Source: an uncultured Thermodesulfobacteriota bacterium | GTDB lineage: Bacteria; Desulfobacterota; Desulfomonilia; UBA1062 | Direction of reading: 5' to 3' | Length of the DNA stretch: 64,000 nt | Assembly: GCA_942491525.1 (NCBI GenBank) | Contig: CALOBW010000030.1 | Span: 291,029 to 355,028, forward strand | The notes under the pieces: model-generated | What the model was told of the DNA's origin: nothing | The model's input: the letters and a program-made list of their open reading frames with translations, nothing else | Database searches by the model: none | Program-made: the position numbers and the translations under genes | Part shown: positions 13,961 to 60,053 of the stretch, one piece after another | How positions within the stretch are numbered: position 1 is the stretch's first letter | How the letters are laid out: the number at the start of each line of letters is the position of its first letter

Positions 13961-14694
13961 GCACAAGCAAAATCGAATGGACCGAAAGCACCTGGAACCC
14001 TACATCCGGATGCACAAAAATATCTACTGGCTGCAAAAATTGTTATGCCGAACGTATGGCCAAACGACTACAAGCAATGGGGATATCCAAATACAAGGAT
14101 GGATTCCAATTGGCTATACACCCAGAGGTACTCAACGAACCATTCTCATGGAAAAATCCCAAATTTGTCTTCGTCAATTCGATGAGTGATCTATTCCATG
14201 AAGATATGCCTTTAGAATATATCAAAAAAGTTTTTACAGTAATAAATGAAAACCCTAAGCATACATTCCAAGTCTTAACAAAGCGTGCTGAGATTTTAGA
14301 AGAATATTCACCTCATCTTAATTGGACAAAAAATATATGGATGGGGGTAACAGTTGAGGATCAGACCTGCGTATCACGCATAGATAACTTGAGAAAAACT
14401 TCCGCCACTGTAAAATTTCTATCAATGGAGCCACTACTAAGCAATATATCTGATATTAACCTAACAGATATCGATTGGGTTATAGTTGGAGGAGAATCTG
14501 GTCCTGGAGCCAGACCCATGAATGAAAGTTGGGTGCTAAACATCAAAAACCAATGCTCAGATTACAACGTACCATTCTTTTTTAAGCAGTGGGGTGGTGT
14601 TAACAAAAAAAAGGCAGGGCGACTACTATTGGGAAAAACTTGGGATCAAATGCCTATAACTCATCCCATAATGCAAAAAGAGGTACATTTTTAA
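13957..14694 (+). CDS. Phage Gp37/Gp68-family protein (DUF5131)
   Basis: The N-terminus MSTSKIEWTESTWNPTSGCTKISTGCKNCYAE matches the IEWT..TWNP..GC...GC..CYA consensus of PF07505 and gives a CX6CX2C cysteine triad. The gene sits in a ~0.95-kb AT-rich patch with host-atypical codon usage. Its start codon overlaps the upstream stop (ATGA). Confidence 0.7.
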   Translation: MSTSKIEWTESTWNPTSGCTKISTGCKNCYAERMAKRLQAMGISKYKDGFQLAIHPEVLNEPFSWKNPKFVFVNSMSDLFHEDMPLEYIKKVFTVINENPKHTFQVLTKRAEILEEYSPHLNWTKNIWMGVTVEDQTCVSRIDNLRKTSATVKFLSMEPLLSNISDINLTDIDWVIVGGESGPGARPMNESWVLNIKNQCSDYNVPFFFKQWGGVNKKKAGRLLLGKTWDQMPITHPIMQKEVHF

Positions 14695-18260: not shown

Positions 18261-18366
18261 TACCTCTTTGTTACCCCCGCATAAAATGACCATTGGCCAC
18301 CACCGACCTCCCGCGTTTTAAATTGGCTTAGCTGCAAGGCAGCCAATAAACATCGAGGAGAGCAGA

Positions 18367-44186: not shown

Positions 44187-44780
44187 ATGCAGCACCTTAG
44201 CGCAATATTCCTGTTTGCCCTGAGCACCTCCATTACGCCGGGGCCCAACAACATCATGGTCATGACCTCCGGCCTCAACCACGGTCTGCGCAAGACCACG
44301 CCCCACTATCTGGGCATCTGTCTGGGTTTCCCGGCCATGGTGCTGGCCATCGGCCTCGGACTGGGCGCCATCTTCATGCAGCTGCCCATGCTGCATAAGA
44401 TCATCAAAATTGTCGGCATCGGCTACCTGCTCTACCTGGCCTGGCTGATCGCCAAGACCAAGCCCGAGCTGGCAGAAAGCGGCAAACCGCTGAGCTTCAT
44501 GCAGGCCGTGCTCTTCCAGTGGGTCAACCCCAAGGCCTGGATCATGGCCATGGGCGCGGTGGCCACCTACACCAGCCTGGACGGCAACATTCTAACTGAA
44601 GTCGCCATCATCACCGGCATCTATCTGCTGGTGCTCTTCCCGGCCGTCGGCAGCTGGTTCCTCTGCGGCTCGCGCCTGCAGCTGCTGATCAAGAGCCCGC
44701 GCCAGCAGCGAGCCTTCAACATCTGCATGGCCCTGCTGCTGGTAAGCTCGGTGCTGCCGATGCTCAGGAGCCAGTTTTAG
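44187..44780 (+). CDS. LysE/RhtB-family amino-acid exporter
   Basis: The signature TPGPNN and six TM helices fit the family. Confidence 0.8.
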   Translation: MQHLSAIFLFALSTSITPGPNNIMVMTSGLNHGLRKTTPHYLGICLGFPAMVLAIGLGLGAIFMQLPMLHKIIKIVGIGYLLYLAWLIAKTKPELAESGKPLSFMQAVLFQWVNPKAWIMAMGAVATYTSLDGNILTEVAIITGIYLLVLFPAVGSWFLCGSRLQLLIKSPRQQRAFNICMALLLVSSVLPMLRSQF

Positions 44781-46194
44781 GCAGACCCATGGCCCACTCG
44801 GCGACGGCCTGCGTGCTGACCCTGATGTTGCCCACCACGGCCGCGCCGCCCACACAGCCGCCTTCGCAGGCCATGACCTCCAGCAGGTTGCCGGGACACT
44901 TACCCCTGGCGTAGGCCTTCAAGATCTTCATCTTCTTGGAATCCAGGCCGTCCATCTGCACCGCATTGACGGTCGTCAGACTGGCCACGGCTGCGGCCAC
45001 CCCGCCGGCCACGGCAAAGCCGCGCGCCTCGGCTGATGGCAGAGTGGAGGGTATGAGCCCAGTGCAGGCCTCAACCTCGATGCCGGCAGCCACCAGCATG
45101 GCCCCCAGCTCCTCAAAGGTCAGCACATAACTAATTTCCGGATCAGCCATGCCCTCCTGGCGCTTAGCCACACAGGGCCCAATGAAGACCGTCACCGCAT
45201 CACTCTGTTCGGCTTTCACCAGAGACGCCGTATAGTGCATGGGGCTTGGCGTGGATGAAACGTAATCTTCAAGCTCGGGCAGATGCTTCCTGACCGCCTG
45301 CACATAGGCCGGGCAGCAGGAGGTGGTCAGAAAGGCCTGGCCCTCTGCCATCTTCTCGGCATGCTCGGCCGCCTCATGTTGGGCGGTCAAATCGGCGCCC
45401 AGAGCCACCTCAATCACCGATGAAAATCCCAGCTTAACAAGAGCCTCCATGATCTGCTCCAGTCTGCCCGGAAACTGACCGGCCACCGAGGGCGCCAGCA
45501 TGGCCACCACCGGTCTATCCTGCTGCATGCGCTCGAGCACATCGATCATCTGAGAGCGCTCCATAACCGCGCCGAAGGGGCAGTTGCGCATGCAGCGGCC
45601 GCAGCCGATACAGGCCTCGAAGTCGATCTCGGCCTTGCCGCCCGCATTCTTCTTGATGGCGTCCACCGGGCAGGCCTCCTCACAGGGCACCGGAATGTGG
45701 GTGATGACATGATAGGGACAGCTCTTGGCGCACTTGCCGCAGTTGCGGCACTTACCTGAGTCGATGTGGGAACGTCCATTGTCGAAGTGAATCGCGCCGA
45801 AGGGGCAGTTCTCCATGCAGGAGCGCGCCGTGCAGCCCTGGCAGGCCTCGGTCACCAGGTAGCGGCTGTCGACACAGCCCTTGCAGGCGATATCCAGCAC
45901 GGTCAGAATGTTGCCGCTCGGCTGCTTGCGTTCAAGGGCCGCCTCGGCATAGGTGCTGAGGGGCGTGAAGTCGTCGACCTCGTCCTCCACTGCGGCGCCC
46001 AGGCCGGCCATGCAGCGATAGCGCAGAACAGCGCGGTCCTTGTAGAGGCAGCAGCGGAAACTCTCGCCGTTCTTGGGGCGCATCTCATAGGGAATGCGCT
46101 CGACGCCTGCGACTAGATTGCCCTCCATGTGGGCGCGGGCCAGGCGGATCAGAACTTCACGGCGCAGACGGGTGGCATTGTTGTGGGTCTGCAT
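44764..46194 (-). CDS. [FeFe]-hydrogenase-like protein (H-cluster domain with two N-terminal 2x[4Fe-4S] ferredoxin modules)
   Basis: H-cluster motifs are present in variant form: L1 TSCCPAYV, L2 GPCVAKRQE, L3 EVMACEGGCVGG. Four CxxCxxCxxxCP motifs lie upstream. Confidence 0.75.
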   Translation of the reverse strand: MQTHNNATRLRREVLIRLARAHMEGNLVAGVERIPYEMRPKNGESFRCCLYKDRAVLRYRCMAGLGAAVEDEVDDFTPLSTYAEAALERKQPSGNILTVLDIACKGCVDSRYLVTEACQGCTARSCMENCPFGAIHFDNGRSHIDSGKCRNCGKCAKSCPYHVITHIPVPCEEACPVDAIKKNAGGKAEIDFEACIGCGRCMRNCPFGAVMERSQMIDVLERMQQDRPVVAMLAPSVAGQFPGRLEQIMEALVKLGFSSVIEVALGADLTAQHEAAEHAEKMAEGQAFLTTSCCPAYVQAVRKHLPELEDYVSSTPSPMHYTASLVKAEQSDAVTVFIGPCVAKRQEGMADPEISYVLTFEELGAMLVAAGIEVEACTGLIPSTLPSAEARGFAVAGGVAAAVASLTTVNAVQMDGLDSKKMKILKAYARGKCPGNLLEVMACEGGCVGGAAVVGNIRVSTQAVAEWAMGLPKTGS

Positions 46195-46196
46195 GG

Positions 46197-46451
46197 CTAC
46201 ACTTCCGCAATCTCTTCAATCCGCTTGATAACACTGGCCAGGGTAGCCCCGGAGAGCACCTCGCCGTTGATCTCCACAAAGGGGGCCTTGCCCAGGCCGC
46301 CGCCCTTGCAGAGATCCAGGCAGGTGCTGCCGCGCACATCGACAAGTGCGCGCAAAGCTGGTGACAGCTCTTCGGTCAAATTTTGAAGGTTGGAGGCGCC
46401 CATGACGTAGCAGGTTGTGCCCATACAGATTTTTACTTCAATTTTCTTCAT
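46197..46451 (-). CDS. Thioredoxin-like [2Fe-2S] ferredoxin (NuoE/HymA-like small protein)
   Basis: MKKIEVKICMGTTCYVMG...CLDLCKGG gives the four Cys in the Trx-like ferredoxin arrangement. Confidence 0.6.
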   Translation of the reverse strand: MKKIEVKICMGTTCYVMGASNLQNLTEELSPALRALVDVRGSTCLDLCKGGGLGKAPFVEINGEVLSGATLASVIKRIEEIAEV

Positions 46452-46460
46452 CGCTTACCC

Positions 46461-47630
46461 CTAGATATACTGAATAATTGTCTCTTTCAGGTAACGCTCT
46501 TCAAGCGTCGCCATGATGCGTTTGATGATGTTGCGCCTGATCTCCAGATCGAGCGGCAGATTGGGATCCTGATGGGCATCATTGATGCGCGTGCCCACCA
46601 GAAACTCGATATGGTCGCTGTCCAGCAGCAGATTGGCCAGCTTGCCGGCCGGATCATCCGGAATAGTCCCCTGCTCCAGATACTGGGCCATGCGCGTCAG
46701 CGTGAGGATGCCCTCGGTCACCAAATCGAGCCCCTCCATCTCGGAGAGCGGCGGCAGATCGCCGAAGCCGCTCAGCACGGTCTGCATGTCGCGGTTAAGC
46801 TCGCGGCCCACAATGTTGGCCGTGGTGCCGCCGCAGATCGCCTTGCGCCCTTCAAAGTGGTCCAGCTTGGTGGCAATCTCACGGTCGCGGCTCTGATCAT
46901 AGGGCGGACCCGAAAGCACCAAGGTGCGCCGAGGCTTCCTGAAGTAGAAGACCGCGCAGGTGATGTCATCCATGGCCCGGCACTGCGGCTCATGGCGCTC
47001 GGCCTCATCCACAATGGCCTGGGCCAGCTCGCGCCCCGAGATGTTGCTGTCCTTGGCCACCAGCTGCTCAACAAAGCTGGAGCAGCCCTCGACGCGCCAG
47101 CCCAACTTCCAGCGGTCGCTGCCCAGGCCGGCCTGGGAGACGCCGTCCGAAAAGACGATCAGGCGGTCCTCGGGCCGGGTGCAGATCTCGGAGACCTGCA
47201 GGGCGCGGTCCTTCCAGCGCGCCGTCATCATGGTGCGGCGGCTGATGTCCACGGCCTTACCGTCGCGGATCAGGATGTAGTTGGGGTTGCCCTGCTCCAC
47301 GATGCGGGTCTTGCCGTGGATGATGCAGTCCACGATCGTGAAGGTGGCATAGGATATCTTGCGCACCTGGCAGATGGGCAGCGAGTCCATGATGACCTCG
47401 CTGGCGCCCACAATGTTGCGGTTGGCCGCCGCAAACTTGAGCGCCATGGTGCCGGTCATGTTGGCCAGGATGTTGGCCTTGACCCCGCTGCCCAGACCGT
47501 CCGAAAGCACCGCGATGATGCGGTCCTCGGCCGGAATCTTGCGCGAGAAGAAGGCGTCGCCGCAGATGTTCTGGGAGTGCTTGTGACGCTGGGCGCAGTC
47601 AACCTCGACGAAGAGCGAACTGGTCAGCAT
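46461..47630 (-). CDS. PP2C-type (SpoIIE/RsbU-like) serine/threonine phosphatase
   Basis: The PPM metal-binding Asp blocks are present (CGDAFF; VLSDGLGSG; VFSDGV; DDITC). Its start overlaps the HydS stop by 1 nt. Confidence 0.75.
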   Translation of the reverse strand: MLTSSLFVEVDCAQRHKHSQNICGDAFFSRKIPAEDRIIAVLSDGLGSGVKANILANMTGTMALKFAAANRNIVGASEVIMDSLPICQVRKISYATFTIVDCIIHGKTRIVEQGNPNYILIRDGKAVDISRRTMMTARWKDRALQVSEICTRPEDRLIVFSDGVSQAGLGSDRWKLGWRVEGCSSFVEQLVAKDSNISGRELAQAIVDEAERHEPQCRAMDDITCAVFYFRKPRRTLVLSGPPYDQSRDREIATKLDHFEGRKAICGGTTANIVGRELNRDMQTVLSGFGDLPPLSEMEGLDLVTEGILTLTRMAQYLEQGTIPDDPAGKLANLLLDSDHIEFLVGTRINDAHQDPNLPLDLEIRRNIIKRIMATLEERYLKETIIQYI

Positions 47631-49324
47631 CAGTCATCCTCCGGCGTAAAGTCCTCCGGCCCGTAATCATGGGCGATGGAGCTTAAGAGGATTTCGGTAT
47701 CAGCCATGTGCTCGCCCAGGCGGCAGGCGATCTCCTGCACGGTGACCATATTTTTCTGAATCACCTGGGCGGCGCGCCGCGCGATCTGCTCGCGCTTCAT
47801 CTCGCTCTGGGTCACATCCTGCACGATCACGCCGATGGTCTGATGGTGCTCGATACTGAAGATGGTGACGTTGAGCAGGCGCTCATCCAGGGGCAGACGC
47901 TCGCGGCTGATGTCCAGGCCGGTGCGCACGGCCGCCTCCAGGATGTCCGGGAAGGGCAGGATCTTGGTCAGCACCGCGCCAGCCATGCCGGGCAGCACGT
48001 CAAAGGCCAGCTGCTCGCCGAACATCTCGGCAAAGGGTTTGTTGCACTCGATGACCCGCAAGTTCTTGTCGGCAATCACCACGCCGGACGGGATGCAGCG
48101 CAGCAAGGCATTGGCCTTTTTCTGGGCCTGATTGCGCATGTAGGAGACGCACATGGCCGGCTCGGCGTTGCCCAGCAGCAAGGCGCGCGCAAAGTGGCGG
48201 CAACTGTCGTAGCCGCAGCCGCCGCAGTTCATCTCATCATGGACACTCTCCTTACCGACCCGGCGCAGAGCCTCCTTGATTTCGCGCTCACTGATCTCAC
48301 GCGGCTCCTCCACCAGCAGGGGCAGCTCATCAACCAAAGAGATGGACGCTTTGGAAGACACCTGCTCGGGCCACTCGGTGCGCCGGCGCACCTCAAGAAT
48401 TGAACTGAAGGTGCTGCAGCTCATGGATGGACCCTGAACACAGCCGCCGCTGCAGGCCAGACACTCTATGAAAACAGGTACCTGAACATCGGCGGGGCTG
48501 AAATTCTTGAGCGCCTGCTCCATCTGGGGCAGACCCGAGACGCTCAGCAGTTCAACCCTCCGGTCGAGGCCGTGGGCCCGGATGGTCTCATTCATGCCGC
48601 CCTCGATCGGATAGATGGCGCCTTCACGGGCAGTCCTGGGATAGAAGCCCTTGCTGCCAATCAGGCCGGCCGGCTCAATTGAGCTCTCACGCCACCAGCG
48701 TTTGAGGTCATCAAAGGTCAGGGCCACATCGATCTCCTGACGTTCGGCTTCCAGCTTCTTGGCCACGCAGGGCCCGATGAAGACCACGCGCACGTCGGCC
48801 TCATGCTTGAGCAGGCGGGCATGGGCCAGCAGCGGCGAGGCCATGGGTGTGACACAGTCGGCCAGCTCCGGCAGGAAGCGGCCGATATAGGTCACGGCGG
48901 CCGGACAGGCGCTGGAGATCAGAACGCCGCGCTGCATTGTGTTAAGCGTTTCGGCCAGACTGGCGGAGACGGCTTCGGCGCCCAGGGCGGTCTCACTGAC
49001 CCGGGCAAACCCCAGGCTCTGCAGACCGGCCACCATCTGCTCGATGCTCAGTTCGGGCCAGGCGCTGACCCAGCTGGGGGCCAGAGAGACAACCACCGGA
49101 CGCGCCTCATCCAGCATGCGTTTGACGCGCTTGATGTCGTCGCGCACCTTCTTGGCCTTGGCCGGACAGACGCTGACGCAACTGCCGCAGGCCACACAGA
49201 GCTCGGGAATTACAGCGGCATGCCCGTCATGCACGCGGATGGCCTTGACCGGGCACTGACGCACGCACTTGTAACAGTCCTGGCACTCGGCTTCGGCGGT
49301 AAATACGGGATACTGAACATTCAT
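47630..49324 (-). CDS. Sensory [FeFe]-hydrogenase-like protein (HydS/HfsB-type) with a C-terminal 4-Cys cluster and PAS domain
   Basis: An N-terminal 2x[4Fe-4S] ferredoxin module is followed by the H-domain, with L1 altered to SSACP (the proton-relay Cys is replaced by Ala), L2 GPCVAKKLE and L3 ECLACSGGC. CGGCGYDSC and a PAS fold (GVVIADKNLRVIECNKPFAEMFG) follow. Confidence 0.75.
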   Translation of the reverse strand: MNVQYPVFTAEAECQDCYKCVRQCPVKAIRVHDGHAAVIPELCVACGSCVSVCPAKAKKVRDDIKRVKRMLDEARPVVVSLAPSWVSAWPELSIEQMVAGLQSLGFARVSETALGAEAVSASLAETLNTMQRGVLISSACPAAVTYIGRFLPELADCVTPMASPLLAHARLLKHEADVRVVFIGPCVAKKLEAERQEIDVALTFDDLKRWWRESSIEPAGLIGSKGFYPRTAREGAIYPIEGGMNETIRAHGLDRRVELLSVSGLPQMEQALKNFSPADVQVPVFIECLACSGGCVQGPSMSCSTFSSILEVRRRTEWPEQVSSKASISLVDELPLLVEEPREISEREIKEALRRVGKESVHDEMNCGGCGYDSCRHFARALLLGNAEPAMCVSYMRNQAQKKANALLRCIPSGVVIADKNLRVIECNKPFAEMFGEQLAFDVLPGMAGAVLTKILPFPDILEAAVRTGLDISRERLPLDERLLNVTIFSIEHHQTIGVIVQDVTQSEMKREQIARRAAQVIQKNMVTVQEIACRLGEHMADTEILLSSIAHDYGPEDFTPEDD

Positions 49325-49332
49325 ACTGACTC

Positions 49333-49557
49333 CTAATAACCGCTCAGCAGATCGATGAGGGTGCCCTCATCGATGCCGGAGAAAAGCTTGCCGTCGATGC
49401 GGATGTTGGGGCCGCTGCAGCACTCGCCTTCGCAGCGGCAGCCGCGCAGCTCGATCTCAAGCTGATGCGCCTGCTGATACTGCTCGATAACTTCCAGATT
49501 GCGCTGATTGCCGCGGGCAAAGCAGGAGCTGCCCATGCAGATGGAGATCTTCTTCAT
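49333..49557 (-). CDS. Thioredoxin-like [2Fe-2S] ferredoxin (HfsA-like)
   Basis: MKKISICMGSSCFARG...CRCEGECCSG fits the family. It is translationally coupled to rex (4-nt overlap). Confidence 0.6.
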   Translation of the reverse strand: MKKISICMGSSCFARGNQRNLEVIEQYQQAHQLEIELRGCRCEGECCSGPNIRIDGKLFSGIDEGTLIDLLSGY

Positions 49558-50204
49558 TTGCCGCGCTCCAGCTGATGCTTGATCTTGACCGAGAGTTCGG
49601 CCAGGCCCGAAGCCAGATCTTCGCGGCGCACGATCACCCCGCGGGGCACCTGCAGCTTGACCGGGGTAAAGTTCCAGATGCCCAGCACACCGTTGCCCAC
49701 CAGAGTGTCGCAGACATCCTGCGCCACGGGCGAGGGCACGGTCAGCACGGCCAGATGCACGTGCAGGCGTTCGGCCAGATTGGGCAGTTTAGTCAGGTCA
49801 AAAACCGGCACACCGTGCAGCTCGGATCCGATCAGGTCCGGGTTGGTGTCAAAGGCGGCCACAATTCTGAGGCCGAACTCGCGGAAACCGGCATAGCCCA
49901 GCAGAGCCTGCCCCAGATTGCCGGCGCCCACCAGAAAGGCATCCGTGAAGTTGTTCCAGCCCAGATAGTCTTCGATGGCGCTGATCAGGTCCTCGACCGC
50001 ATAACCGACCCCGGTCTTGCCCACGGCCTGCGTGATCTCCAGATCCTTCTTGACCACAATCTGCTGCAGCTCAAGTTCACGGGCCAGCCAGGAGGACGAG
50101 ACCACATCCTGACCCGAATCCTTCAACCCCTGCAGGGCCCTCAGATAGAGCGGCAGCCTTCTGATGGATGGCAGTTTGGCGACTTGACGTTCATAGTTTG
50201 ACAT
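49554..50204 (-). CDS. rex: Redox-sensing transcriptional repressor Rex
   Basis: The N-terminal wHTH (IRRLPLYLRAL) and the Rossmann motif GAGNLG are present. Confidence 0.8.
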   Translation of the reverse strand: MSNYERQVAKLPSIRRLPLYLRALQGLKDSGQDVVSSSWLARELELQQIVVKKDLEITQAVGKTGVGYAVEDLISAIEDYLGWNNFTDAFLVGAGNLGQALLGYAGFREFGLRIVAAFDTNPDLIGSELHGVPVFDLTKLPNLAERLHVHLAVLTVPSPVAQDVCDTLVGNGVLGIWNFTPVKLQVPRGVIVRREDLASGLAELSVKIKHQLERGK

Positions 50205-50338
50205 ATTTGCCCCCGATGTTAGATATGAAATTATCTATCCTCTATATTCATGTCGGAAGCAGGTCAAGAAGCTTTAGATATTTTTTTATCTATCACTAGC
50301 GGCTTGCGACCGGCCGCCAGGCGGTTATCATTTGTGCA

Positions 50339-51124
50339 ATGAAGATACACAGCCTACTTATCCTGATCCTGCTTGCCACCCCGGCCTTGGCGGCCCAGGA
50401 CGTGATCATCTATGCCGATGACGAATACGCGCCCTACTCCTACCGCGACGGCAAAGAGGGCGCCGGCATCTATGCTGAGATCATCACCCGCGCCACCAAC
50501 CGCATGGTGGACTACAACGTCACCATCATGCCCCTGCCCTGGAAACGCGGGCTGGCCCAACTGGAAACCGGCAAGGGCTTCGCAATCTTCCCCCCGTACA
50601 AACTGCCCAAGCTGAGGCCATATATGGATTACTCAGCGCCAATCCTGGAGGAGACGGTCGTGGTATTCATGCGCGATGAGATCCTGATCAAGAAGGAGCG
50701 CCAGGAGTGGCCCGATGACTTCCTGGGCCTGCGTGTGGGCCAGAACCTGGGATTCAGGCTGGGCGGAGAAAAATTCTGGCAGGCGGTTGAAAATGGCGAG
50801 ATCTTTCTGGAGGAGGCGCGCAGCACCCAGGTCAACCTGCTGAAGCTCGGTCTGGGCCGCATCGACTGCTACATCAACGACCGCACCGCCATCCTCATGG
50901 AGCTAAACCGCCTCAAGAAACGCGGTGACTACGACGAGGGCGGCACCCACGCCAAACTGGTCGAAGGCCCGGTGGTCAACTCGGAATGGGGCCACCTGGG
51001 CATCACCAACCGCGGCAACTTCCCCTACAAAAATGACTTCATCGAGCGGTTCAACGCCGAGATCAAGAAGATGCAGGACTCGGGCGAAATTCAAAAGATC
51101 ATCAACAGCTACATCGGCCAGTAA
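50339..51124 (+). CDS. Periplasmic solute-binding protein, family 3 (orphan; no cognate permease nearby)
   Basis: A signal peptide is followed by an SBP_bac_3-like fold. Confidence 0.65.
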   Translation: MKIHSLLILILLATPALAAQDVIIYADDEYAPYSYRDGKEGAGIYAEIITRATNRMVDYNVTIMPLPWKRGLAQLETGKGFAIFPPYKLPKLRPYMDYSAPILEETVVVFMRDEILIKKERQEWPDDFLGLRVGQNLGFRLGGEKFWQAVENGEIFLEEARSTQVNLLKLGLGRIDCYINDRTAILMELNRLKKRGDYDEGGTHAKLVEGPVVNSEWGHLGITNRGNFPYKNDFIERFNAEIKKMQDSGEIQKIINSYIGQ

Positions 51125-53371: not shown

Positions 53372-53734
53372 TCATTGTTGCCCGGACACTTTGTCGCCCA
53401 CCATGATCTGCTTGATCATGATATCCTTGCCATTGAGCGCTTCCAGCTGCGTATTAGAACAGGCCGGGCAGCTGAAATCGTTCTCATAGGCCCTGAACTC
53501 CTGATTGCAGGCCAGACAGCGCGCCATACCGGGAACGACCTCGATCTCCAACTCAGTATCCTGCATGAAGGTCTTGTGCACGGCGGCCGGATAGCAGGCC
53601 TCCAGATAGGAGGGCACCACGCCCGAAAGCTCGCCCACCTCGAGAACTATCTTTTCGACAGTCGCAAACTTTTCGACCTGCTTTATGCCTTCCACAGTCC
53701 GGATAATCATCTTCACGATGCCCGCCTCATGCAT
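53372..53734 (-). CDS. hypA: Hydrogenase nickel-insertion protein HypA
   Basis: The N-terminal MHE nickel site and the zinc CxxC...CxxC (CLACNQ...CPACS) are present. Confidence 0.85.
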   Translation of the reverse strand: MHEAGIVKMIIRTVEGIKQVEKFATVEKIVLEVGELSGVVPSYLEACYPAAVHKTFMQDTELEIEVVPGMARCLACNQEFRAYENDFSCPACSNTQLEALNGKDIMIKQIMVGDKVSGQQ

Positions 53735-53739
53735 AACGG

Positions 53740-56409
53740 TTACTGCTCACCCTTAAGCGCACGTTTAATTGTTCCGCCCGCCACCTTGACACTTCTGGTT
53801 ACAGCGTAGGGCGCCACCTTCAACGCGATCTTTTCAAAAGCAACGGCGTCATCATCAAACTTGCGGATCAACTTGACAGCCTCGAACTCACACTTGAGCA
53901 CGCACTGGCCGCAGCCGATGCACATATCCTGGTTAAGAGTAACAGCACCGCAGCCAAGGCAGCGCTCGGTCTCCTTCTTGAGCTGCTCCTCGGTAAAGGT
54001 CATGCGGGAATCTTTAAAGCTCTTAACCTGCTCTGAGCTGTGACCTGCACGCTGACGCCGCATGTTGTCGAAGCCCTCAATAACCACATTCTGCTTGTCA
54101 AAAGCCTTATAGTTACGGCGGTCGCGGCCCAGGGTCTGGCTCTGTCCGGGCCAGACCGCCCGATGGATGGAGATGGCCCCCTGCTTGCCGGCGGCAATGG
54201 CGTCGATGGCAAACTTCGGCCCGCTGAAAACGTCGCCGCCGGCAAAGATACCATCGGCGCCGGTGGCATAGGTGAAGCTGTCAGCCACCACCGTGCCGTT
54301 GCGGTTCAGGTCAACCGCCGTATCCTTGAGCATCTCGCCCCAGGCAATTGCCTGGCCGATGGAGACCAGCACGGCGTCAGCGTCGACAATCACGGTTTCA
54401 TCCTCATTGAAGCGGGGCGCAAACTGACCCTGATCATTGAATACCGCAACGCATCTCTTAAACTCGACACCCTTGACCTTGCCCTTTTCCAGGATGATGC
54501 GTTTGGGTCCCCAGCCGTTGTTGATCTCAATGCCTTCGGCGCATGCCTCCTCGATCTCTTCGGGCAGGGCCGGCATCTCATTGGCGCCTTCAAGGCAGTA
54601 CATGCCAACCGTCTCGGAACCGACGCGGACAGCCGTACGCGCCACATCGATGGCCACATTGCCGCCGCCGATCACCACAACCTTGCCCTTCAACTTGACC
54701 TCTTTGCCGAGGTTGACATCACGCAGGAAGCTGACGCCGGAGATGGCACCCTCCTCACCCTCAATGTTGAGTTTCCGGCCAGCCTGGGCGCCGATGGCAA
54801 GGTAGAAGGCCTCAAAACCATCCTTGCGCAGGGCTTCAATGGTCACATCCCTGCCGACTTCAACGCCGGTCCTGAACTCGACCCCCAGCACACGCAGGAT
54901 CTCGATCTCCGCCTTGACCACATCTTTTTCCAGCCTGAAGGATGGAATGCCGAGGGTCAGCATGCCGCCCAGCTGCTCCTCCTTCTCAAACACGGTTACC
55001 TGATAACCTTCGGCCGCCAGATAGTAGGCGCAGCTCAAGCCCGCCGGACCGCTGCCGACGACCGCGATTTTCTTGTCATATTGATTAAGCTTCTCGGGCA
55101 CGAAGCGGCACTCCTCGTTCAGCTCCATGTCGGCGATGAACTTTTTGATCTCATCGATCGCGATCGGGTCATCCAGATCACCGCGGGTGCAGACCGATTC
55201 ACAGGCGTGGGGACAGATGCGTCCGCAGACGGCCGGGAAGGGATTCTCTCGCTTGATCAGCTCCAGCGCCTCCATGTACCTGCCCTGGGAGGCAAACTTG
55301 ATATAGGCCTGAACGCCGATATTGGCCGGGCACTCGGCCTTGCAGGGCGCGGTTCCGCTCTCATGCACATCGCTGCGGTTTTCACGGTAGTCCATGTTCC
55401 AGTACTTCTCACCCCAGATACGGTCGCGGGGCGTCGGCGTGGGTTTGGTCTCGATGGGGGTCTTGGAGCAGAGTTTCTGCCCGAGCTTGAGCGCATTGGT
55501 GGGGCAGTACTCCACGCACAGGCCGCAGGCCGCACAGTTTTCGGTGACCAGTTCCGAGACAAAGTTGGAGCGGATCACATCCGGGGCATTCATCATGGCC
55601 GCCGTGCGGATCGAGAAGCAGGAGCAGGAGCAGCAGTTGCAGATGGCCGGAATCTCCTCATTGCCCCAGAGGTTGGGAGCCTCATGGACATAGCCCTTCT
55701 CCTCGCAGCGCCTGAAGATTTCAAGCGCCTCTTCGCGTGTGATCTCACGGCCCTTGCCGGTGTTGATGTTGTACTCGGCCGTCTCTCCCAGCGAGACGCA
55801 GACCTCATGCTCCAGATGGCCGCAGCCCTCGTCCATATGGCGGCGCGTGGCGCGGCACATACAGTTGCCCACGGCAAAACGGTCATACTTGTCCATCCAG
55901 TAGGAGATCTTCTCCCACTCCTTGACGCCTTCAACATCCTTGATGGCCTCTTCAGCCGGCAGCACCCGCACAAGGCCGGCGCCCTTGGTCAGCAGCGGGG
56001 CCAGCGGCGCGATGCGGATGCGGGTGTACTCCTCAAAGGCCCGGCCGATATCGGGATGCTTCTCAAAGAGCTCCGTGTTGGCCACCATCAGTTCCAGCAC
56101 CCCCGGGGCAAAGAGCTCGATCATGAAGGTCTCTCTGCCGTCCCGGTTGAAGACCTTGCAGACGCCCACATCGGCCAGCTGCAGCGCCAGCCGGTGCGCT
56201 TCATCAACGGGTTTGCCGCACTTGGCCGCGATCTCCTCGATGGTTTTGAACTTTCTCAACTCCATGCCGAGACCGACCTCGGCCATCTCATCGGTTACCA
56301 CGCAGGCCAGACCGTAATATTCCGGTGCGTTCTCATCGATCCTGTTGATCAGGGCCGCCGGCCCGCTGATCATCTTGGCCAACTCCACGATTTTCTTCCT
56401 TAATGCCAT
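53740..56409 (-). CDS. Large Fe-S flavoprotein: novel N-terminal Cys/His-rich domain plus a ferredoxin, fused to a GltD/NfnB-type FAD/NAD(P)H oxidoreductase with a C-terminal 2x[4Fe-4S] ferredoxin
   Basis: The GltD-like core has a CKAECPANIGVQ...AVCGRICPHACESVCTRG Fe-S pair and GXGXXG KKIAVVGSGPAGLSCAYYLAAEG..EKEEQLGG. The N-terminal ~330 aa carry CMCRATRRHMDEGCGHLEHEVC, ICNCCSCSCF and a CAACGLCVEYCP ferredoxin. The C-terminus has CLGCGAVT..CIGCGQCVLKCE. There is no HdrA-type CxGCRD...CSxVCC motif. It sits 6 nt upstream of hypA and 40 nt downstream of hypB. Confidence 0.65.
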   Translation of the reverse strand: MALRKKIVELAKMISGPAALINRIDENAPEYYGLACVVTDEMAEVGLGMELRKFKTIEEIAAKCGKPVDEAHRLALQLADVGVCKVFNRDGRETFMIELFAPGVLELMVANTELFEKHPDIGRAFEEYTRIRIAPLAPLLTKGAGLVRVLPAEEAIKDVEGVKEWEKISYWMDKYDRFAVGNCMCRATRRHMDEGCGHLEHEVCVSLGETAEYNINTGKGREITREEALEIFRRCEEKGYVHEAPNLWGNEEIPAICNCCSCSCFSIRTAAMMNAPDVIRSNFVSELVTENCAACGLCVEYCPTNALKLGQKLCSKTPIETKPTPTPRDRIWGEKYWNMDYRENRSDVHESGTAPCKAECPANIGVQAYIKFASQGRYMEALELIKRENPFPAVCGRICPHACESVCTRGDLDDPIAIDEIKKFIADMELNEECRFVPEKLNQYDKKIAVVGSGPAGLSCAYYLAAEGYQVTVFEKEEQLGGMLTLGIPSFRLEKDVVKAEIEILRVLGVEFRTGVEVGRDVTIEALRKDGFEAFYLAIGAQAGRKLNIEGEEGAISGVSFLRDVNLGKEVKLKGKVVVIGGGNVAIDVARTAVRVGSETVGMYCLEGANEMPALPEEIEEACAEGIEINNGWGPKRIILEKGKVKGVEFKRCVAVFNDQGQFAPRFNEDETVIVDADAVLVSIGQAIAWGEMLKDTAVDLNRNGTVVADSFTYATGADGIFAGGDVFSGPKFAIDAIAAGKQGAISIHRAVWPGQSQTLGRDRRNYKAFDKQNVVIEGFDNMRRQRAGHSSEQVKSFKDSRMTFTEEQLKKETERCLGCGAVTLNQDMCIGCGQCVLKCEFEAVKLIRKFDDDAVAFEKIALKVAPYAVTRSVKVAGGTIKRALKGEQ

Positions 56410-56448
56410 TGTTTCCTCCCTCGTATCTATGTTTAAATCAAATCCGTT

Positions 56449-57120
56449 TCAGTCATCTTTCCATGACTTCACTTCACTCTTCAGCCAGTCTGCCCATTCA
56501 TCGATGCCTTCGCCGGTACGGGCTGAGATTGGAATAATCTTAATCCTGGGATTCAGTTTGCCGGCCCGCTCCCTGACCGCGTTGAGATCAAAATCAAAAT
56601 GCGGCAGAACGTCTAGCTTGTTGATCAGCAGAACATCGCAGATCTGAAACATCAGGGGATATTTCAGCGGCTTGTCATCGCCCTCGGGTACCGACAGGAT
56701 CATCGCATTTTTGACAGATCCGGTATCAAACTCGGCCGGACAGACCAGATTGCCGACATTTTCCAGAACAACAAGATCCAGTTCATCGACACCCAGCCCG
56801 CCAAGTCCCTGACGGGTCATATCGGCATCCAGATGGCACATGCCGCCGGTGTGCAGCTGGATAACTTTGACGCCGGCATTGGAAATCGTGACCGCATCCA
56901 CGCTGGAATCGATATCCGCCTCCATTATTCCGATGCGAAGGTCATCCTTAAGCGAACTGATGGTCTGAACCAGGGTGGTGGTTTTACCGGCCCCGGGCGA
57001 ACTCATAAGATTTAGCAGGAACGTGCCCTTGCTCTTCAACTCTGCACGCAGGCGTTCCGCATCCTGATTATTATCCGCAAAAACACTCTGCTTAATGTCC
57101 AATACGCGAAAATCTTTCAT
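56449..57120 (-). CDS. hypB: Hydrogenase nickel-incorporation GTPase HypB (no His-rich N-terminus)
   Basis: The G1 motif SSPGAGKTT and the CH metal site (GGMCHLDA) are present, with homology to the HypB/UreG/CobW family. Confidence 0.85.
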   Translation of the reverse strand: MKDFRVLDIKQSVFADNNQDAERLRAELKSKGTFLLNLMSSPGAGKTTTLVQTISSLKDDLRIGIMEADIDSSVDAVTISNAGVKVIQLHTGGMCHLDADMTRQGLGGLGVDELDLVVLENVGNLVCPAEFDTGSVKNAMILSVPEGDDKPLKYPLMFQICDVLLINKLDVLPHFDFDLNAVRERAGKLNPRIKIIPISARTGEGIDEWADWLKSEVKSWKDD

Positions 57121-57131
57121 AGATCCCCTTA

Positions 57132-57701
57132 TTAATCCGACTGTTTTTTGAGTCGCTCTTGCAGGAGGGCAATGCTGTGGTCAGCCCACTCGATATACAT
57201 GTTGAAAATGCGAAAACCGAAATCCACGGTCAGCTCCCAGTAGAAGAAATCATTCGAGGGAACTTCATAAGCCGAGAGCATCCCATCAACATTCTGGTAG
57301 GATTGCTGCAGCCGCGCTCGCTTGATTTCCGCCAGCTCACGGAACCGTTTAATAGAGTGCAGAAGCTCCTCGTCCGGAATTTTTGCGGCAAAGAAGACCT
57401 TGGACAGATATGGCAGGCGCTGGGCGAAATGGGGTTCCTCGCCATAGTCGACGAGCCAGTTGAAGAGCGCCTCCTCGCCGGCCGGTGTGATCGAGAAGAG
57501 TTTCTTGGTCGGACGGGAGTCCTGTTCTTCGCGCCGTTGCGTAACATAGCCATCGACGAGCAGGGCATTCAGTTCCCGGTAGATCTGGCTTTGCTGGGCC
57601 GAGAAAAAAAACTTCAAACTGCCGTCAAACAGTTTGTAGATGTCATAGCCTGACATCTCCTTGTAACTGACCAATCCGAGTATGGACATTCTAAGCGACA
57701 T
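57132..57701 (-). CDS. PadR-family transcriptional regulator
   Basis: The N-terminal wHTH (ILGLVSYKEMSGYDIYKLF...SQIYRELNAL) fits PadR. Confidence 0.8.
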   Translation of the reverse strand: MSLRMSILGLVSYKEMSGYDIYKLFDGSLKFFFSAQQSQIYRELNALLVDGYVTQRREEQDSRPTKKLFSITPAGEEALFNWLVDYGEEPHFAQRLPYLSKVFFAAKIPDEELLHSIKRFRELAEIKRARLQQSYQNVDGMLSAYEVPSNDFFYWELTVDFGFRIFNMYIEWADHSIALLQERLKKQSD

Positions 57702-57913: not shown

Positions 57914-58214
57914 CATTTATGACTGATGAATTTCTAATTTAAAAACTAGGCAATGGGTGCCACTGGCTAAGCGCAGCTTGCCAGTGTGGGAATCGCACGG
58001 GCAAGACGTCAAGTTAGATAAACGGGATGTTTGCCTTGGCCCGTGGCACACGGCGAAGGTAAACATTACTTTTGATAAGTGTGGATTTCTTGGAATGTGG
58101 GCAATGGCTAGTTATGTGCAGTCTCACAAAAAAAACAAAAAGCAAGACCCGCCCCCAATATACCCTGCTCGCTTTCAGGCTGGTACATAGTTTGGAGGAA
58201 GGTCACGACAAGAC

Positions 58215-58784
58215 TCATCCGATATAAACATAAAAGACATAAAACCACACCACAACCAGTGGAGAGATGATATATATAGCAATGAGCAATAAATCCTGGA
58301 TACTAACCTCCTGGTGACTCACAACCGTATTTGCATCTTCGTCCCAGTATGTCGTCTTCGTCTTTTGTAGATAAAAGAAAGATGACCCCTGTGCGATATA
58401 ATCGACAACTGGCAATCCAAGCCCTTGCCCATAAAACCAGAGAATAAACTTCCGTCTCAGGGCTTGAATGTAGGATAATTCACTGCCGTCTTTATTGGTA
58501 ACCCTGATGTTAAATAACGCCTTTCCAATTGTAGTACCAAATACAGCAAACATCGCAGCTTCCCAAAAATTATAAAAAAAGTGCAACGCAAGAATGAAGG
58601 TAAACTTAGAATGGTCCTGAACCGGATAATGTAATACCCAAGCACCTCCAAGCACAATCAAGAAAAAGAAATATATATCAGCCCCCCGGGCCATACATCT
58701 TATAAACGGTCTAATCTGTGGACCTGATGGAACATACTCTATATCTGAAGCTAACTTAGCTTGCGAACGTTTCTTGCTGCTCAT
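58215..58784 (-). CDS. RDD-family membrane protein
   Basis: GTTIGKALFNIRVTNKDGSELSYIQALRR matches the RDD signature, and TM helices are present. It lies in low-GC DNA. A GAGGG RBS precedes the start MSSKKRSQ. Confidence 0.55.
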   Translation of the reverse strand: MSSKKRSQAKLASDIEYVPSGPQIRPFIRCMARGADIYFFFLIVLGGAWVLHYPVQDHSKFTFILALHFFYNFWEAAMFAVFGTTIGKALFNIRVTNKDGSELSYIQALRRKFILWFYGQGLGLPVVDYIAQGSSFFYLQKTKTTYWDEDANTVVSHQEVSIQDLLLIAIYIISPLVVVWFYVFYVYIG

Positions 58785-58885
58785 TAAATAACAACCCTCC
58801 ATACTTCTTTTATTTACCGATTGTACATCAACGCCACACATGTACGCACTGGGTCAGGTCTTGCGTTTTGCCACTATTCTTCAAA

Positions 58886-58936
58886 ACTGCACATAACTGC
58901 TATTTATCATGTCGATCCAGGGACTGCAATTGACGC
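58886..58936. repeat. Imperfect ~50-nt direct repeat, copy 1
   Basis: ACTGCACATAACTGCTATTTATCATGTCGATCC..CAATTGACGC recurs at 59517-59568 with an 18-nt perfect core and ~75% identity overall. Confidence 0.5.
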
Positions 58937-59126
58937 TTTATTGGCTAGTTAGGTGGAATCGGGAGTTTCAATGTAGGTCGTGTTGAGCTTGCGAAACCCG
59001 ACAGCGGCCTTGGGGCAATTGTTGGTTTTCATTCTTCATGCCGACCTGCGAACTAAGTATCTATATATCAAGGGTCTGCCATTTAACAGCTGCCAAGCTA
59101 AGCTCTCAATATTACTCAAATATTTA

Positions 59127-59155
59127 TTGACATCCTCGCTTCCTGGCTATACTGT
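59127..59155 (+). promoter_or_regulatory. Near-consensus sigma-70 promoter TTGACA-N15-TATACT (or N17-TACTGT) driving small ORFs
   Basis: TTGACA is at 59127-59132 and TATACT at 59148-59153. AAGGAG at 59170 is followed by ATG 59182, which opens a 17-codon ORF, then the GTG-initiated 88-aa ORF. Confidence 0.5.
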
Positions 59156-59204
59156 AAATTTAAAACTTAAAGGAGACTACAATGTCGAATGACCAAAAAT
59201 TGAA

Positions 59205-59471
59205 GTGTTACAAAGAATACTTCTTAAGATCCTAAAGAATGGAAAAAGCATCAAAGAATTAAAATTGTTTACAGATATTATTAGCTCAACGAACTTACCT
59301 AAAGATCAAATCAGTGATGTAGTGAACGATGCGATTAAAATGAGTTTAATTGAATCTTCCATCGAAACGATTTCAATAAAAGGAGATAATGCCAGTCTAG
59401 TGCAATTGCCACAAGGAACCACTTATAAGATAACCCCTAAAGGTGAAGAATACGTAGAAGATATTAGATGA
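59205..59471 (+). CDS. Small hypothetical protein (88 aa, GTG start) in the AT-rich islet; possibly a frameshifted continuation of the 17-codon ORF at 59182
   Basis: The composition is low-GC and K/I/E-rich, with no motif I recognise. The supporting evidence is weak. Confidence 0.3.
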   Translation: MLQRILLKILKNGKSIKELKLFTDIISSTNLPKDQISDVVNDAIKMSLIESSIETISIKGDNASLVQLPQGTTYKITPKGEEYVEDIR

Positions 59472-59516
59472 ATTAGTCAATTTAACAAATCCAAATGTGA
59501 CACGTTAAAAGGTAAC

Positions 59517-59568
59517 AGACTGCACATAACTGCTATCTATCACGCCAATCCCCAAACCACAATTAACG
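59517..59568. repeat. Imperfect ~50-nt direct repeat, copy 2
   Basis: The sequence is described under copy 1 (58886..58936). This copy abuts the stop of gene 59574..59966. Confidence 0.5.
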
Positions 59569-59573
59569 CCCCA

Positions 59574-59966
59574 TCAACCATCTACATGCTTCGCATCTCT
59601 CCGATCAAGCAGCAGATACCAACCTCCGCAAACCGCGCCACCGCCGATCAGCATGCTCGACAGCCAGGAGTCAAACTCATACTGCGCATGGACCATGAAG
59701 AGCGCATGCAGGACGGCATGCAGCACCAGGAAGGCTGATACCCAGAATTTCGTACGATTGCGGGTGGCTGGATTTTCACTTGCGATCAACCCGAGCAAAA
59801 CTGCAAAGAGCGGAAGGTGGGCAATGATAAAAACGATCTGGCCAATATCTTCGGGCAGCCAGCTGGTTAACGGCAGAACGCGCCACTCATGATTCAGCAC
59901 CGCATCCAATTCATGCGTGAAGAGAAACCCTACCCCCCAATTGAACACTCGATCCTTCATGAGCAA
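59574..59966 (-). CDS. Small membrane protein of unknown function (4 TM helices)
   Basis: This 130-aa protein is hydrophobic and His-rich (HAVLHALFMVHAQYEF). Confidence 0.45.
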   Translation of the reverse strand: MLMKDRVFNWGVGFLFTHELDAVLNHEWRVLPLTSWLPEDIGQIVFIIAHLPLFAVLLGLIASENPATRNRTKFWVSAFLVLHAVLHALFMVHAQYEFDSWLSSMLIGGGAVCGGWYLLLDRRDAKHVDG

Positions 59967-60053
59967 GCCTCCATCAGATCATTAACCTACCACGGCTGCG
60001 CGGGAATGACAAAGAGAGAGCCCGGGGAAAAGAACTTCCCCGGGCGTAATTAA

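Follow-up and report, generated by a model that had tools for sequence, protein, structure and literature searches.

A predicted Rex-headed HydS/Hfs-type hydrogenase operon with a candidate variant Rex operator

Described Clusters of the HydS/Hfs Type

One of the closest described counterparts of the locus presented here is found on plasmid pRUMAL01 of Ruminococcus albus 7. According to the annotated plasmid record, from which the cluster was taken, it comprises eight genes in the order Rex-AdhE-phosphotransferase(kinase)-Fdx-Fdx-HydS-SpoIIE(PP2C)-HydA2. Its expression tracks the H2 level, with a 111-fold down-regulation when H2 is kept low (PMC6776011). A related cluster is hfsABCD of Thermoanaerobacterium saccharolyticum, which consists of a small first gene followed by the genes for HfsB, a PAS hydrogenase, HfsC, a Ser phosphatase, and HfsD, a ferredoxin-linked hydrogenase similar to HydA2. 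Genetic work in Thermoanaerobacterium points to a regulatory role of hfsA and hfsB: without either of them, ethanol and hydrogenase activity go up, an effect that depends on hfsC and hfsD (PMC5707799; PMC11837493). A Rex box has been predicted upstream of hfsABCD (PMC5886521). In Clostridium thermocellum, Cthe_0422-0432 is a Rex-headed, co-regulated redox cluster encoding a HydS-type protein and a SpoIIE phosphatase (PMC3848806; PMC8457756). The Rex that heads it is a paralog distinct from the global Rex.

HydS of Thermotoga maritima (TmHydS) offers a comparison for the sensory hydrogenase of these clusters; it combines a PAS domain with an H-cluster and accessory [4Fe-4S] clusters. TmHydS was seen to incorporate the [2Fe] cofactor, to react with H2 and to retain measurable activity (PMC10055695). 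This activity is low, and the protein, with its pattern A131/G177/S267, is regarded as a sensor (PMC10055695; PMC11376134). Very low activity is likewise reported for the characterised group C enzymes (PMC11376134). An Ala at the proton-relay position occurs in about 43% of the sensory sequences and in TmHydS (PMC10055695).

Gene Content and Organization

The window, i.e., the whole stretch of DNA that was analysed, spans 64,000 nucleotides from an uncultured Thermodesulfobacteriota bacterium. Between positions 44764 and 50204 it contains six tightly packed minus-strand genes, in the order rex-fdx1-hydS-pp2c-fdx2-hydB:

rex, 49554-50204, minus strand, 216 aa: predicted NADH/NAD+-sensing repressor of a divergent subfamily, Rossmann motif GAGNLG
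fdx1, 49333-49557, minus strand, 74 aa: thioredoxin-like [2Fe-2S] protein paired with HydS; 4-nt overlap with rex
hydS, 47630-49324, minus strand, 564 aa: predicted sensory (group C type) [FeFe]-hydrogenase
pp2c, 46461-47630, minus strand, 389 aa: predicted SpoIIE/RsbX-type PPM Ser/Thr phosphatase; 1-nt overlap of its start with the hydS stop
fdx2, 46197-46451, minus strand, 84 aa: second thioredoxin-like [2Fe-2S] protein, paired with HydB
hydB, 44764-46194, minus strand, 476 aa: group B (B1) monomeric ferredoxin-type [FeFe]-hydrogenase

The junctions between the six ORFs are, in order, -4, +8, -1, +9 and +2 nt. From these overlapping or near-touching genes we infer that the six are co-transcribed as one operon. 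The ORFs lie at exactly the coordinates and on the strand of the original prediction, and matches to family models agree with the identities that it assigned (Rex, two thioredoxin-like [2Fe-2S] proteins, a sensory hydrogenase, a PP2C phosphatase and a second H-cluster protein). The motifs that it quoted were found as well: SSACP, GPCVAKKLE and ECLACSGGC in HydS, and TSCCP, GPCVAKRQE and EVMACEGGCVGG in HydB. Its functional reading as an hfs/HydS-type module is supported: Rex stands first, and a co-directional small Fe-S protein, a PAS-bearing sensory [FeFe]-hydrogenase, a PP2C phosphatase and a second, group B hydrogenase of catalytic type are all present. The statement that the maturases encoded by hydE, hydF and hydG are absent from the window also holds, as no HydE, HydF or HydG family match was obtained among its larger ORFs. 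Neither the operon nor the window contains a kinase, a STAS protein or another obvious PP2C substrate, and an Rfam scan of the window gave no match.

The locus shares with the R. albus 7 cluster the leading Rex, the two small [2Fe-2S] proteins, the PAS-bearing HydS and a SpoIIE phosphatase of 389 aa. R. albus HydA2 likewise scores above the TIGR04105 group B cut-off (577 bits), the proteins are reciprocal best matches of those in the window (33-36% identical), both Rex proteins belong to the same subfamily (NF003994 being the best model), and TATCGATA repeats are found upstream of the R. albus rex. The two clusters differ in that adhE and the phosphotransferase/kinase gene are absent from the window, in the second ferredoxin gene, which lies beside the first in R. 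albus but between pp2c and the hydrogenase gene in the window, and in the operator spacing, which is 7 nt in R. albus and 6 nt here. Compared by description, hfsABCD of T. saccharolyticum has the same order. However, its rex (tsac_2615) is unlinked, its box is the canonical TTGTTA-N6-TAACAA, and no second ferredoxin gene precedes hfsD. The C. thermocellum cluster (rex-adhE-kinase-...-HydS-SpoIIE) differs by including adhE and a kinase, and by a downstream hydrogenase that is a NuoE/NuoF-type multimeric bifurcating enzyme instead of a group B monomer.

The Hydrogenases and Their Partner Proteins

HydS has two N-terminal [4Fe-4S] motifs, an H-domain (PF02906, E 3.6e-44) with the SSACP motif, a C-terminal four-Cys cluster (C367, C370, C375 and C392; PF04060 FeS, E 1.6e-9, residues 365-393) and, after this cluster, a PAS domain (PAS_8, 29.1 bits, cut-off 21.8, residues 406-444). 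In alignments with group A structures, C140, C186, C291, C295 and K189 fall on the L1-L3 motifs. None of the four H-cluster Cys ligands is missing, and Lys358 is kept as well. The second coordination sphere is non-canonical, with Ala replacing the proton-relay cysteine C299, Gly replacing M353 and Leu replacing M497. According to its published description (PMC10055695), TmHydS shares with HydS the cofactor and domain layout as well as the first two substitutions, whereas it has Ser at the M497 position. Among 80 relatives, SSACP is found in 72 and the four-Cys motif in all; the H-cluster ligands and the second-sphere Lys are strictly conserved. HydS stays below the cut-offs of both the group A model (94.6 vs. 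405.95) and the B1 model (189.9 vs. 450). In reciprocal comparison, R. albus HydS comes out first, at 303 bits against 129 bits for HydA2.

HydB, on the other hand, matches TIGR04105 FeFe_hydrog_B1 over residues 4-454 with 543.3 bits (cut-off 450), and its active-site motifs TSCCP, GPCVAKRQE and EVMACEGGC are intact, as expected for group B (B1). Assignment to group A was rejected, as HydB scores 137.9 against a cut-off of 405.95 in that model. The protein was aligned to the group A enzymes in the PDB, and its reciprocal best match is R. albus HydA2. Judged from its sequence, HydB is presumed to be the catalytic H2 producer.

Both small proteins are of the thioredoxin-like [2Fe-2S] type (NuoE/HydC C-terminal type), which is defined by PF01257 and the pattern C-x4-C...C-x3-C. 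For fdx1 the PF01257 score is 29.9 bits (cut-off 24.8), with the cysteines at positions 7, 12, 42 and 46, and its gene is directly upstream of hydS in 53 of the 80 related loci. The score of fdx2 is marginal (24.6 bits vs. 24.8), the cysteine pattern is complete (Cys9/14/44/48), and the fdx2 homologue in L083 carries PF01257. Eleven related loci contain hydB and extend far enough downstream; in all 11 it is preceded by fdx2, hydB without fdx2 being found at none. The phosphatase matches PF07228 SpoIIE (E 3.1e-12). Its metal-binding Asp residues are invariant, and the PP2C fold was confirmed by a structure prediction built on an alignment of database homologues. The C-terminal alpha/beta domain of the protein is conserved and carries no annotation.

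The Rex Protein and Its Candidate Operator

The window Rex matches NF003994 Rex at 270.7 bits (cut-off 130), as well as PF06971 and PF02629. Matches to Rex proteins in the PDB span E 1e-28 to 1e-37, the best being 8.7e-37. With its N-terminal winged helix and its Rossmann NAD(H)-binding domain, the protein has the two-domain fold and the GxGxxG motif of canonical Rex from T. aquaticus, B. subtilis and Thermoanaerobacter. It differs in the recognition helix, QIVVKKDLEITQ: the canonical helix/wing reads A-[ST]-Q-I-R-K-D-L-S-Y-F-G, and that of the window Rex Q-I-V-V-K-K-D-L-E-I-T-Q. The associated palindromes also differ, TTGTGA/TTGTTA-N6-TCACAA/TAACAA being canonical and TNGATA-N6-TATCNA being associated with Rex of the window type.

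A canonical operator upstream of rex, as envisaged in the original prediction, is absent. No match to TTGTGAA-N4-TTCACAA with up to three mismatches was obtained anywhere in 44700-50500; the window holds three such matches outside the module, which is chance level, and just three weak matches were obtained upstream of the 80 related loci. The canonical operator was therefore rejected. In its place, a diverged Rex-like palindrome is present twice:

Distal operator-like palindrome, 50275..50292, strand ".": TAGATA-N6-TATCTA, perfect, 7 nt upstream of the TTGACC hexamer
Putative core promoter, 50241..50267, minus strand: TTGACC (50267-50262), 15-nt spacer, TATAGA (50246-50241); assigned by eye, weak
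Proximal operator-like palindrome, 50220..50237, strand ".": TAGATA-N6-TATCTA, perfect, 3 nt past the putative -10 and 15 nt before the rex ATG

The two palindromes thus bracket the likely core promoter, for which a sigma-70 consensus scan made no minus-strand call upstream of rex. The same two-site layout is common to the window, L004, L016 and L083; in L004 and L016 the palindromes flank TTGACT-17-TATACT/TATAAT. Their 6-N6-6 geometry and AT-rich spacer are those of known Rex boxes, and two of the six half-site positions depart from TTGTTA, the half-site in Thermoanaerobacter (PMC5886521). TNGATA-N6-TATCNA was found 42 times across 74 promoter windows taken from related loci, the mean in shuffled sequence being 1.06. 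When metagenomes were searched with the motif only, a rex gene was present beside it at 54 of 120 loci, with the end of the motif at most 200 bp from the rex start in 51 of these 54, and all Rex proteins recovered carry the helix [IV]-x-V-R-K-D, unlike canonical Rex. Shuffling of the same promoter windows and this reverse search from motif to gene led to the rejection of chance AT-rich sequence as an explanation of the palindromes. The motif additionally occurs upstream of adhE genes that adjoin related clusters and upstream of the R. albus rex. A TNGATA-N6-TATCNA operator was not described in the literature searched, RegPrecise and Zheng et al. 2014 lying outside that search.

Rex control of the locus rests on a candidate variant operator, because the canonical box is absent. 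We infer an autoregulated Rex subfamily that recognises this variant. The balance tips slightly towards a wider proposal, namely a distinct multi-phylum subfamily (NF003994 as best model, shared with R. albus Rex; helix x-[IV]-x-V-[RK]-K-D-L...T-G) whose DNA specificity has shifted to TNGATA-N6-TATCNA and which, besides regulating itself, would run a dedicated adhE/hydrogenase/HydS regulon next to the canonical global Rex.

Proposed Regulation and Alternatives

The preferred reading, to which we assign a probability of roughly two in three (0.68), is that of one operon for the redox- and H2-responsive control of fermentative H2 production, belonging to the HydS/Hfs cluster family of R. albus, C. 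thermocellum and Thermoanaerobacterium. As long as the NADH/NAD+ ratio is low, the Rex encoded by the operon itself would bind both TAGATA-N6-TATCTA sites and repress transcription; rising NADH would release it. Upon derepression, HydB would dispose of reducing equivalents as H2, probably assisted by fdx2. HydS, probably assisted by fdx1, would bind H2 at its H-cluster, with a slow turnover that is proposed because the site lacks the proton-relay cysteine. Its redox state would pass via the extra four-Cys cluster to the PAS domain, which in turn would modulate the translationally coupled phosphatase. The latter may dephosphorylate some target, either the hydrogenase system or a regulator. The outcome would be feedback by the product, H2, on top of control by NADH.

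Alternatively, the module could be a plain multi-subunit catalytic hydrogenase made up of HydS, HydB and two ferredoxin-like subunits, with HydS having no role in sensing and PP2C and Rex being ordinary regulators. Indeed, the hfs operon entered the literature as the main H2-producing hydrogenase of T. saccharolyticum (PMC11837493), the Cys ligands and Lys358 are kept in HydS, and the activity of TmHydS is measurable (PMC10055695). This is nevertheless quite improbable in view of the Ala at the proton-relay position, here and in 72 of 80 relatives, the PAS domain and translational coupling to the phosphatase, the very low activity of characterised group C enzymes (PMC11376134) and the regulatory phenotype of an hfsB single deletion, in which hydrogenase activity increased (PMC5707799). 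If HydS is a sensor, it might respond to the cellular redox state, i.e., the ferredoxin pool or the electron flow through fdx1 and the four-Cys cluster, instead of H2, the H-cluster site being secondary or unoccupied. The position of that cluster next to the PAS domain, the dedicated [2Fe-2S] partner, the lack of hydEFG nearby and the proposal that the HfsB PAS domain responds to redox potential (PMC11837493) all fit this model. It is judged unlikely, however: the strict conservation of the H-cluster ligands and the second-sphere Lys across relatives argues for a bound H-cluster in HydS, uptake of the [2Fe] cofactor and reactivity with H2 have been reported for TmHydS (PMC10055695), and the R. 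albus cluster follows the H2 level (PMC6776011).

With regard to the palindromes, another transcription factor might bind them. Rex would then be a mere passenger of the transcript, with canonical boxes at other places in the genome as its targets. Besides the missing canonical box, this would account for the motif upstream of fdx1/hydS at loci without rex within 10 kb (e.g., L015, L051 and L069), where a regulator encoded elsewhere is possible, and for the second, canonical-like rex that adjoins the cluster in some genomes (L001, L002). Yet in the motif-only search 51 of 120 loci had rex directly downstream, irrespective of what else lay nearby, and the helix type covaries with the motif: of 12 loci with an I-V-[VI] helix, 11 have the motif, and of about 14 loci of the Victivallis type, none does. 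Together with the Rex-like geometry and half-site (PMC5886521) and the position before adhE, a classic Rex target, this makes binding by another factor highly improbable.

Distribution and Significance

The locus is one more example, from an anaerobe, of a cluster type on which work has been done in rumen and biofuel Firmicutes. Of more use is a by-product of the analysis, the candidate operator for a hydrogenase-linked Rex paralog. If it is confirmed, regulons for the balance between H2 and ethanol would become predictable in many uncultured fermenters and, provided that Rex_1799, the second Rex of C. thermocellum, belongs to the same subfamily, this protein would become easier to approach.

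According to the original prediction, neither the operon's Rex gene nor the duplicated ferredoxin/H-cluster pairing matches a described system. This is contradicted by the Rex-headed clusters of R. albus 7 and C. thermocellum. Moreover, the identical Rex-containing order is already widespread, a finding that the prediction itself had named as speaking against it. Because the same layout is known in these two species and is found in many phyla, the locus falls within a known kind of cluster as an ordinary example, and the implied novelty is unsupported. Examples of the full rex-fdx-hydS-pp2c-fdx-hydB cassette are found far beyond the Firmicutes: L083, L025, L060, L061 and L080 show the identical six-gene order, among them the closest metagenomic relative and genomes of Planctomycetota, Melioribacteraceae and Ozemobacteraceae. 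Among 74 related loci, 31 have Rex immediately upstream.

Gene content and packing

All six genes of the module (44764-50204) are on the minus strand, and the ORF listing places them exactly where the original prediction had put them. In operon order, the junctions measure -4, +8, -1, +9 and +2 nt. From the sequence, this tight packing is operon-like, and translational coupling of rex with fdx1 and of hydS with pp2c is likely. Profile searches confirmed the families proposed for all six proteins.

Proteins of the module, in operon order
Rex, minus strand: NF003994, 270.7 bits (cut-off 130); also PF06971 and PF02629
fdx1, minus strand: thioredoxin-like [2Fe-2S] protein; PF01257, 29.9 bits (cut-off 24.8)
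HydS, minus strand, 564 aa: sensory-type [FeFe]-hydrogenase with two N-terminal [4Fe-4S] motifs; PF02906, E 3.6e-44; PF04060 FeS, E 1.6e-9; PAS_8 above cut-off, as predicted
PP2C, minus strand: SpoIIE-type phosphatase
fdx2, minus strand: thioredoxin-like [2Fe-2S] protein; PF01257, 24.6 bits (cut-off 24.8), marginal
HydB, minus strand, 476 aa: group B [FeFe]-hydrogenase; TIGR04105 'FeFe_hydrog_B1' passed, 543.3 bits (cut-off 450)

The C-x4-C...C-x3-C pattern is complete in both fdx1 and fdx2. The four module proteins that were checked are all singletons at 90% identity and come from a single 512-kb NCBI contig.

Class and sensory features of the H-cluster proteins

Every motif quoted in the original prediction is found in the sequence. 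Judged by curated models, neither H-cluster protein scores as an ordinary group A enzyme: both miss the group A cut-off of 405.95 (HydS 94.6, HydB 137.9). In alignments to solved group A enzymes, the Ala of SSACP in HydS occupies the position of the proton-relay Cys, while the GPC motif places Gly at M353 and the ECLAC motif places Leu at M497. Of 80 related genome loci, 72 have SSACP and every one has the C-terminal 4-Cys motif, so that the 'sensory' features are traits of the HydS family and not peculiar to this locus. The family is very large, with 7468 among 8000 scored candidates reaching E <= 1e-20, and the PP2C family is of comparable size (at least 7989 proteins). Among the larger ORFs of the window there is no match to HydE, HydF or HydG, in agreement with the original prediction. 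A 245-aa ORF (13957-14694) was rejected as HydE or HydG; its weak, sub-threshold match is to 'radical SAM mobile pair protein A' (96.8 bits, cut-off 355).

Related loci and known systems

The reading of the locus as an hfs/HydS-type module is sound. The original prediction could match neither the Rex gene in the operon nor the duplicated ferredoxin/H-cluster pairing to a described system, but both are already represented in studied organisms and are widespread. Plasmid pRUMAL01 of R. albus 7 is annotated as Rex-AdhE-phosphotransferase-(2Fe-2S)-(2Fe-2S)-HydS-SpoIIE-HydA2. The window proteins and their R. albus counterparts are each other's best matches (33-36% identity), both Rex proteins score best with NF003994, and HydA2 also passes the group B model (577 bits, cut-off 450). 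With NCBIfam, HydA2 (locus L081, 11832-13268) thus scores as B1, whereas PMC6776011 places this ferredoxin-only hydrogenase in group A1. The window encodes no homologue of the kinase from the R. albus cluster. Expression of this 'eight-gene cluster' drops 111-fold once a partner organism takes away H2 (PMC6776011), and Rex and HydS have each been put forward as a regulator of the cluster (PMC10084766).

A second example is the co-regulated C. thermocellum cluster Cthe_0422-0432, i.e., rex-adhE-kinase-...-Fe-S protein-SpoIIE-hydrogenase (PMC3848806), in which Rex is a second paralog and not the global Rex_2471 (PMC8457756). The core order is also that of hfsABCD in T. saccharolyticum, where genetics identified HfsA and HfsB as regulators and the phenotype requires HfsC and HfsD (PMC5707799; PMC11837493). 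A Rex box has been predicted upstream of hfsABCD (PMC5886521).

In the comparison set of 80 related genome loci, hydS is followed by pp2c in 77. Where flanking sequence suffices, rex lies directly upstream in the same orientation in 31 of 74 loci, and pp2c is followed by fdx2 and hydB in 11 of 60. The full six-gene order is found again in L025 (a Planctomycetaceae MAG), in L060 and L061 (both Melioribacteraceae) and in L080 (an Ozemobacteraceae MAG). The closest HydS homologue, on a JGI metagenome contig (59% identity), is encoded in the identical six-gene array with overlapping junctions, and another relative has the order rex-adhE-fdx-hydS-pp2c-x-hydB. Since fdx1 is paired with hydS in 53 of 80 loci and fdx2 with hydB wherever hydB occurs (hydB without fdx2 was found in none of the related loci examined), the pair of a small [2Fe-2S] protein and an H-cluster protein looks like a reusable cassette. 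AdhE genes frequently adjoin HydS clusters.

A candidate variant Rex operator

The most interesting remainder of the locus is a candidate variant Rex operator with its accompanying Rex subfamily. The canonical box suggested by the original prediction (TTGTGAA-N4-TTCACAA-like) is absent from the module at up to 3 mismatches. The 134 bp upstream of rex instead hold two perfect TAGATA-N6-TATCTA palindromes, the only ones in the 64 kb:
50275-50292: palindrome
50220-50237: palindrome

By eye, they flank the hexamers TTGACC and TATAGA, which are set 15 nt apart. This rex promoter is tentative, because a consensus scan called none on the minus strand at this region. Two Lentisphaerota loci (L004, L016) have the same two-site layout about a clear TTGACT-17-TATAAT/TATACT promoter, and the closest relative (L083) has it as TGGATA-N6-TATCCA.

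The promoter windows of 74 related loci contain 42 sites of the general motif, TNGATA-N6-TATCNA (shuffled windows: mean 1.06, maximum 5). R. albus rex is also preceded by the motif, there with a spacer of 7 nt. Where adhE adjoins the cluster, the motif can lie directly upstream of adhE (L074 6793-6876, L070 17737-17824, L014 2900-2931), or in an intergenic region shared with a divergent adhE (L052, L065, L080), which suggests a single regulon for ethanol and H2 production. In a reverse test, metagenome contigs were searched with the double site alone, TCGATA-N6-TATCGATA-N6-TATCGA, regardless of gene content. A Rex homologue is encoded in 54 of the 120 returned loci, and in 51 of these the approximate start of rex follows the end of the motif within 200 bp. 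Tandem arrays account for 16 of the remaining loci. Such arrays of TCGATA-N6-TATCGA, long and with a 14-bp period (L085, L101, L113, L115, L184 and others), have no rex nearby and are probably unrelated satellite repeats.

The window Rex and all Rex proteins of the reverse test have the recognition helix x-[IV]-x-V-[RK]-K-D-L-x-x-T/x-G, unlike the canonical A-[ST]-Q-I-R-K-D-L-S-Y-F-G. Within the HydS-linked set, motif and helix covary: of 12 loci whose Rex has an I-V-[VI] helix, 11 have the motif, and of about 14 Victivallis-type loci (helices [ST]-[VA]-R-K-D-[LM]-E-M), none does. Known Rex boxes share the 6-N6-6 geometry and AT-rich spacer, and the Thermoanaerobacter half-site TTGTTA differs from the TAGATA of the window at two of six positions (PMC5886521). 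From enrichment, the adhE and R. albus sites, the reverse test, helix, covariation and geometry, we infer that the palindromes are bound by this Rex subfamily, which would thereby be autoregulated. The motif is also present in some related loci without rex within 10 kb. Binding of the palindromes by a factor other than Rex is considered very unlikely.

Two related loci (L001 2383-3888, L002 7991-9544) carry a pair of divergently transcribed rex paralogs, of which one resembles canonical Rex (helix ...ALVRKDFADFG) and the other is linked to HydS. The region between the two genes of L001 contains a canonical-like box, TTGTGAATTTTGTAACAG, together with a site of the TCGATA type.

Proposed mechanism

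Rex would repress from the two operators until relieved by NADH, and HydB with fdx2 would then produce H2. HydS with fdx1 would sense H2, its slow H-cluster chemistry reaching the PAS domain by way of the 4-Cys cluster. The PAS domain would control the coupled PP2C, which would act on some phosphoprotein. Product feedback by H2 through PP2C would thus be added to NADH control. A purely catalytic hydrogenase complex is distinctly improbable. TmHydS, with the same A/G substitutions, has low activity and is considered a sensor, and no signalling mechanism is yet known for any HydS (PMC10055695; PMC11376134). HydS might also respond to redox state rather than to H2, which is unlikely; the R. albus cluster responds to removal of H2.

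Other features of the window

A minus-strand group at 53372-57701 contains hypA, an 889-aa Fe-S flavoprotein (Fer4_20 and Pyr_redox_2, GltD/DPD-like) and a hypB/CobW-type GTPase, with a PadR regulator adjacent. The oxidoreductase is flanked by [NiFe]-hydrogenase maturation genes; no [NiFe] structural genes are present in the window. Two regions are outliers in composition, namely 15351-18293 (about 67% GC, around a 969-aa ORF without NCBIfam match) and 58001-60000 (about 43% GC).
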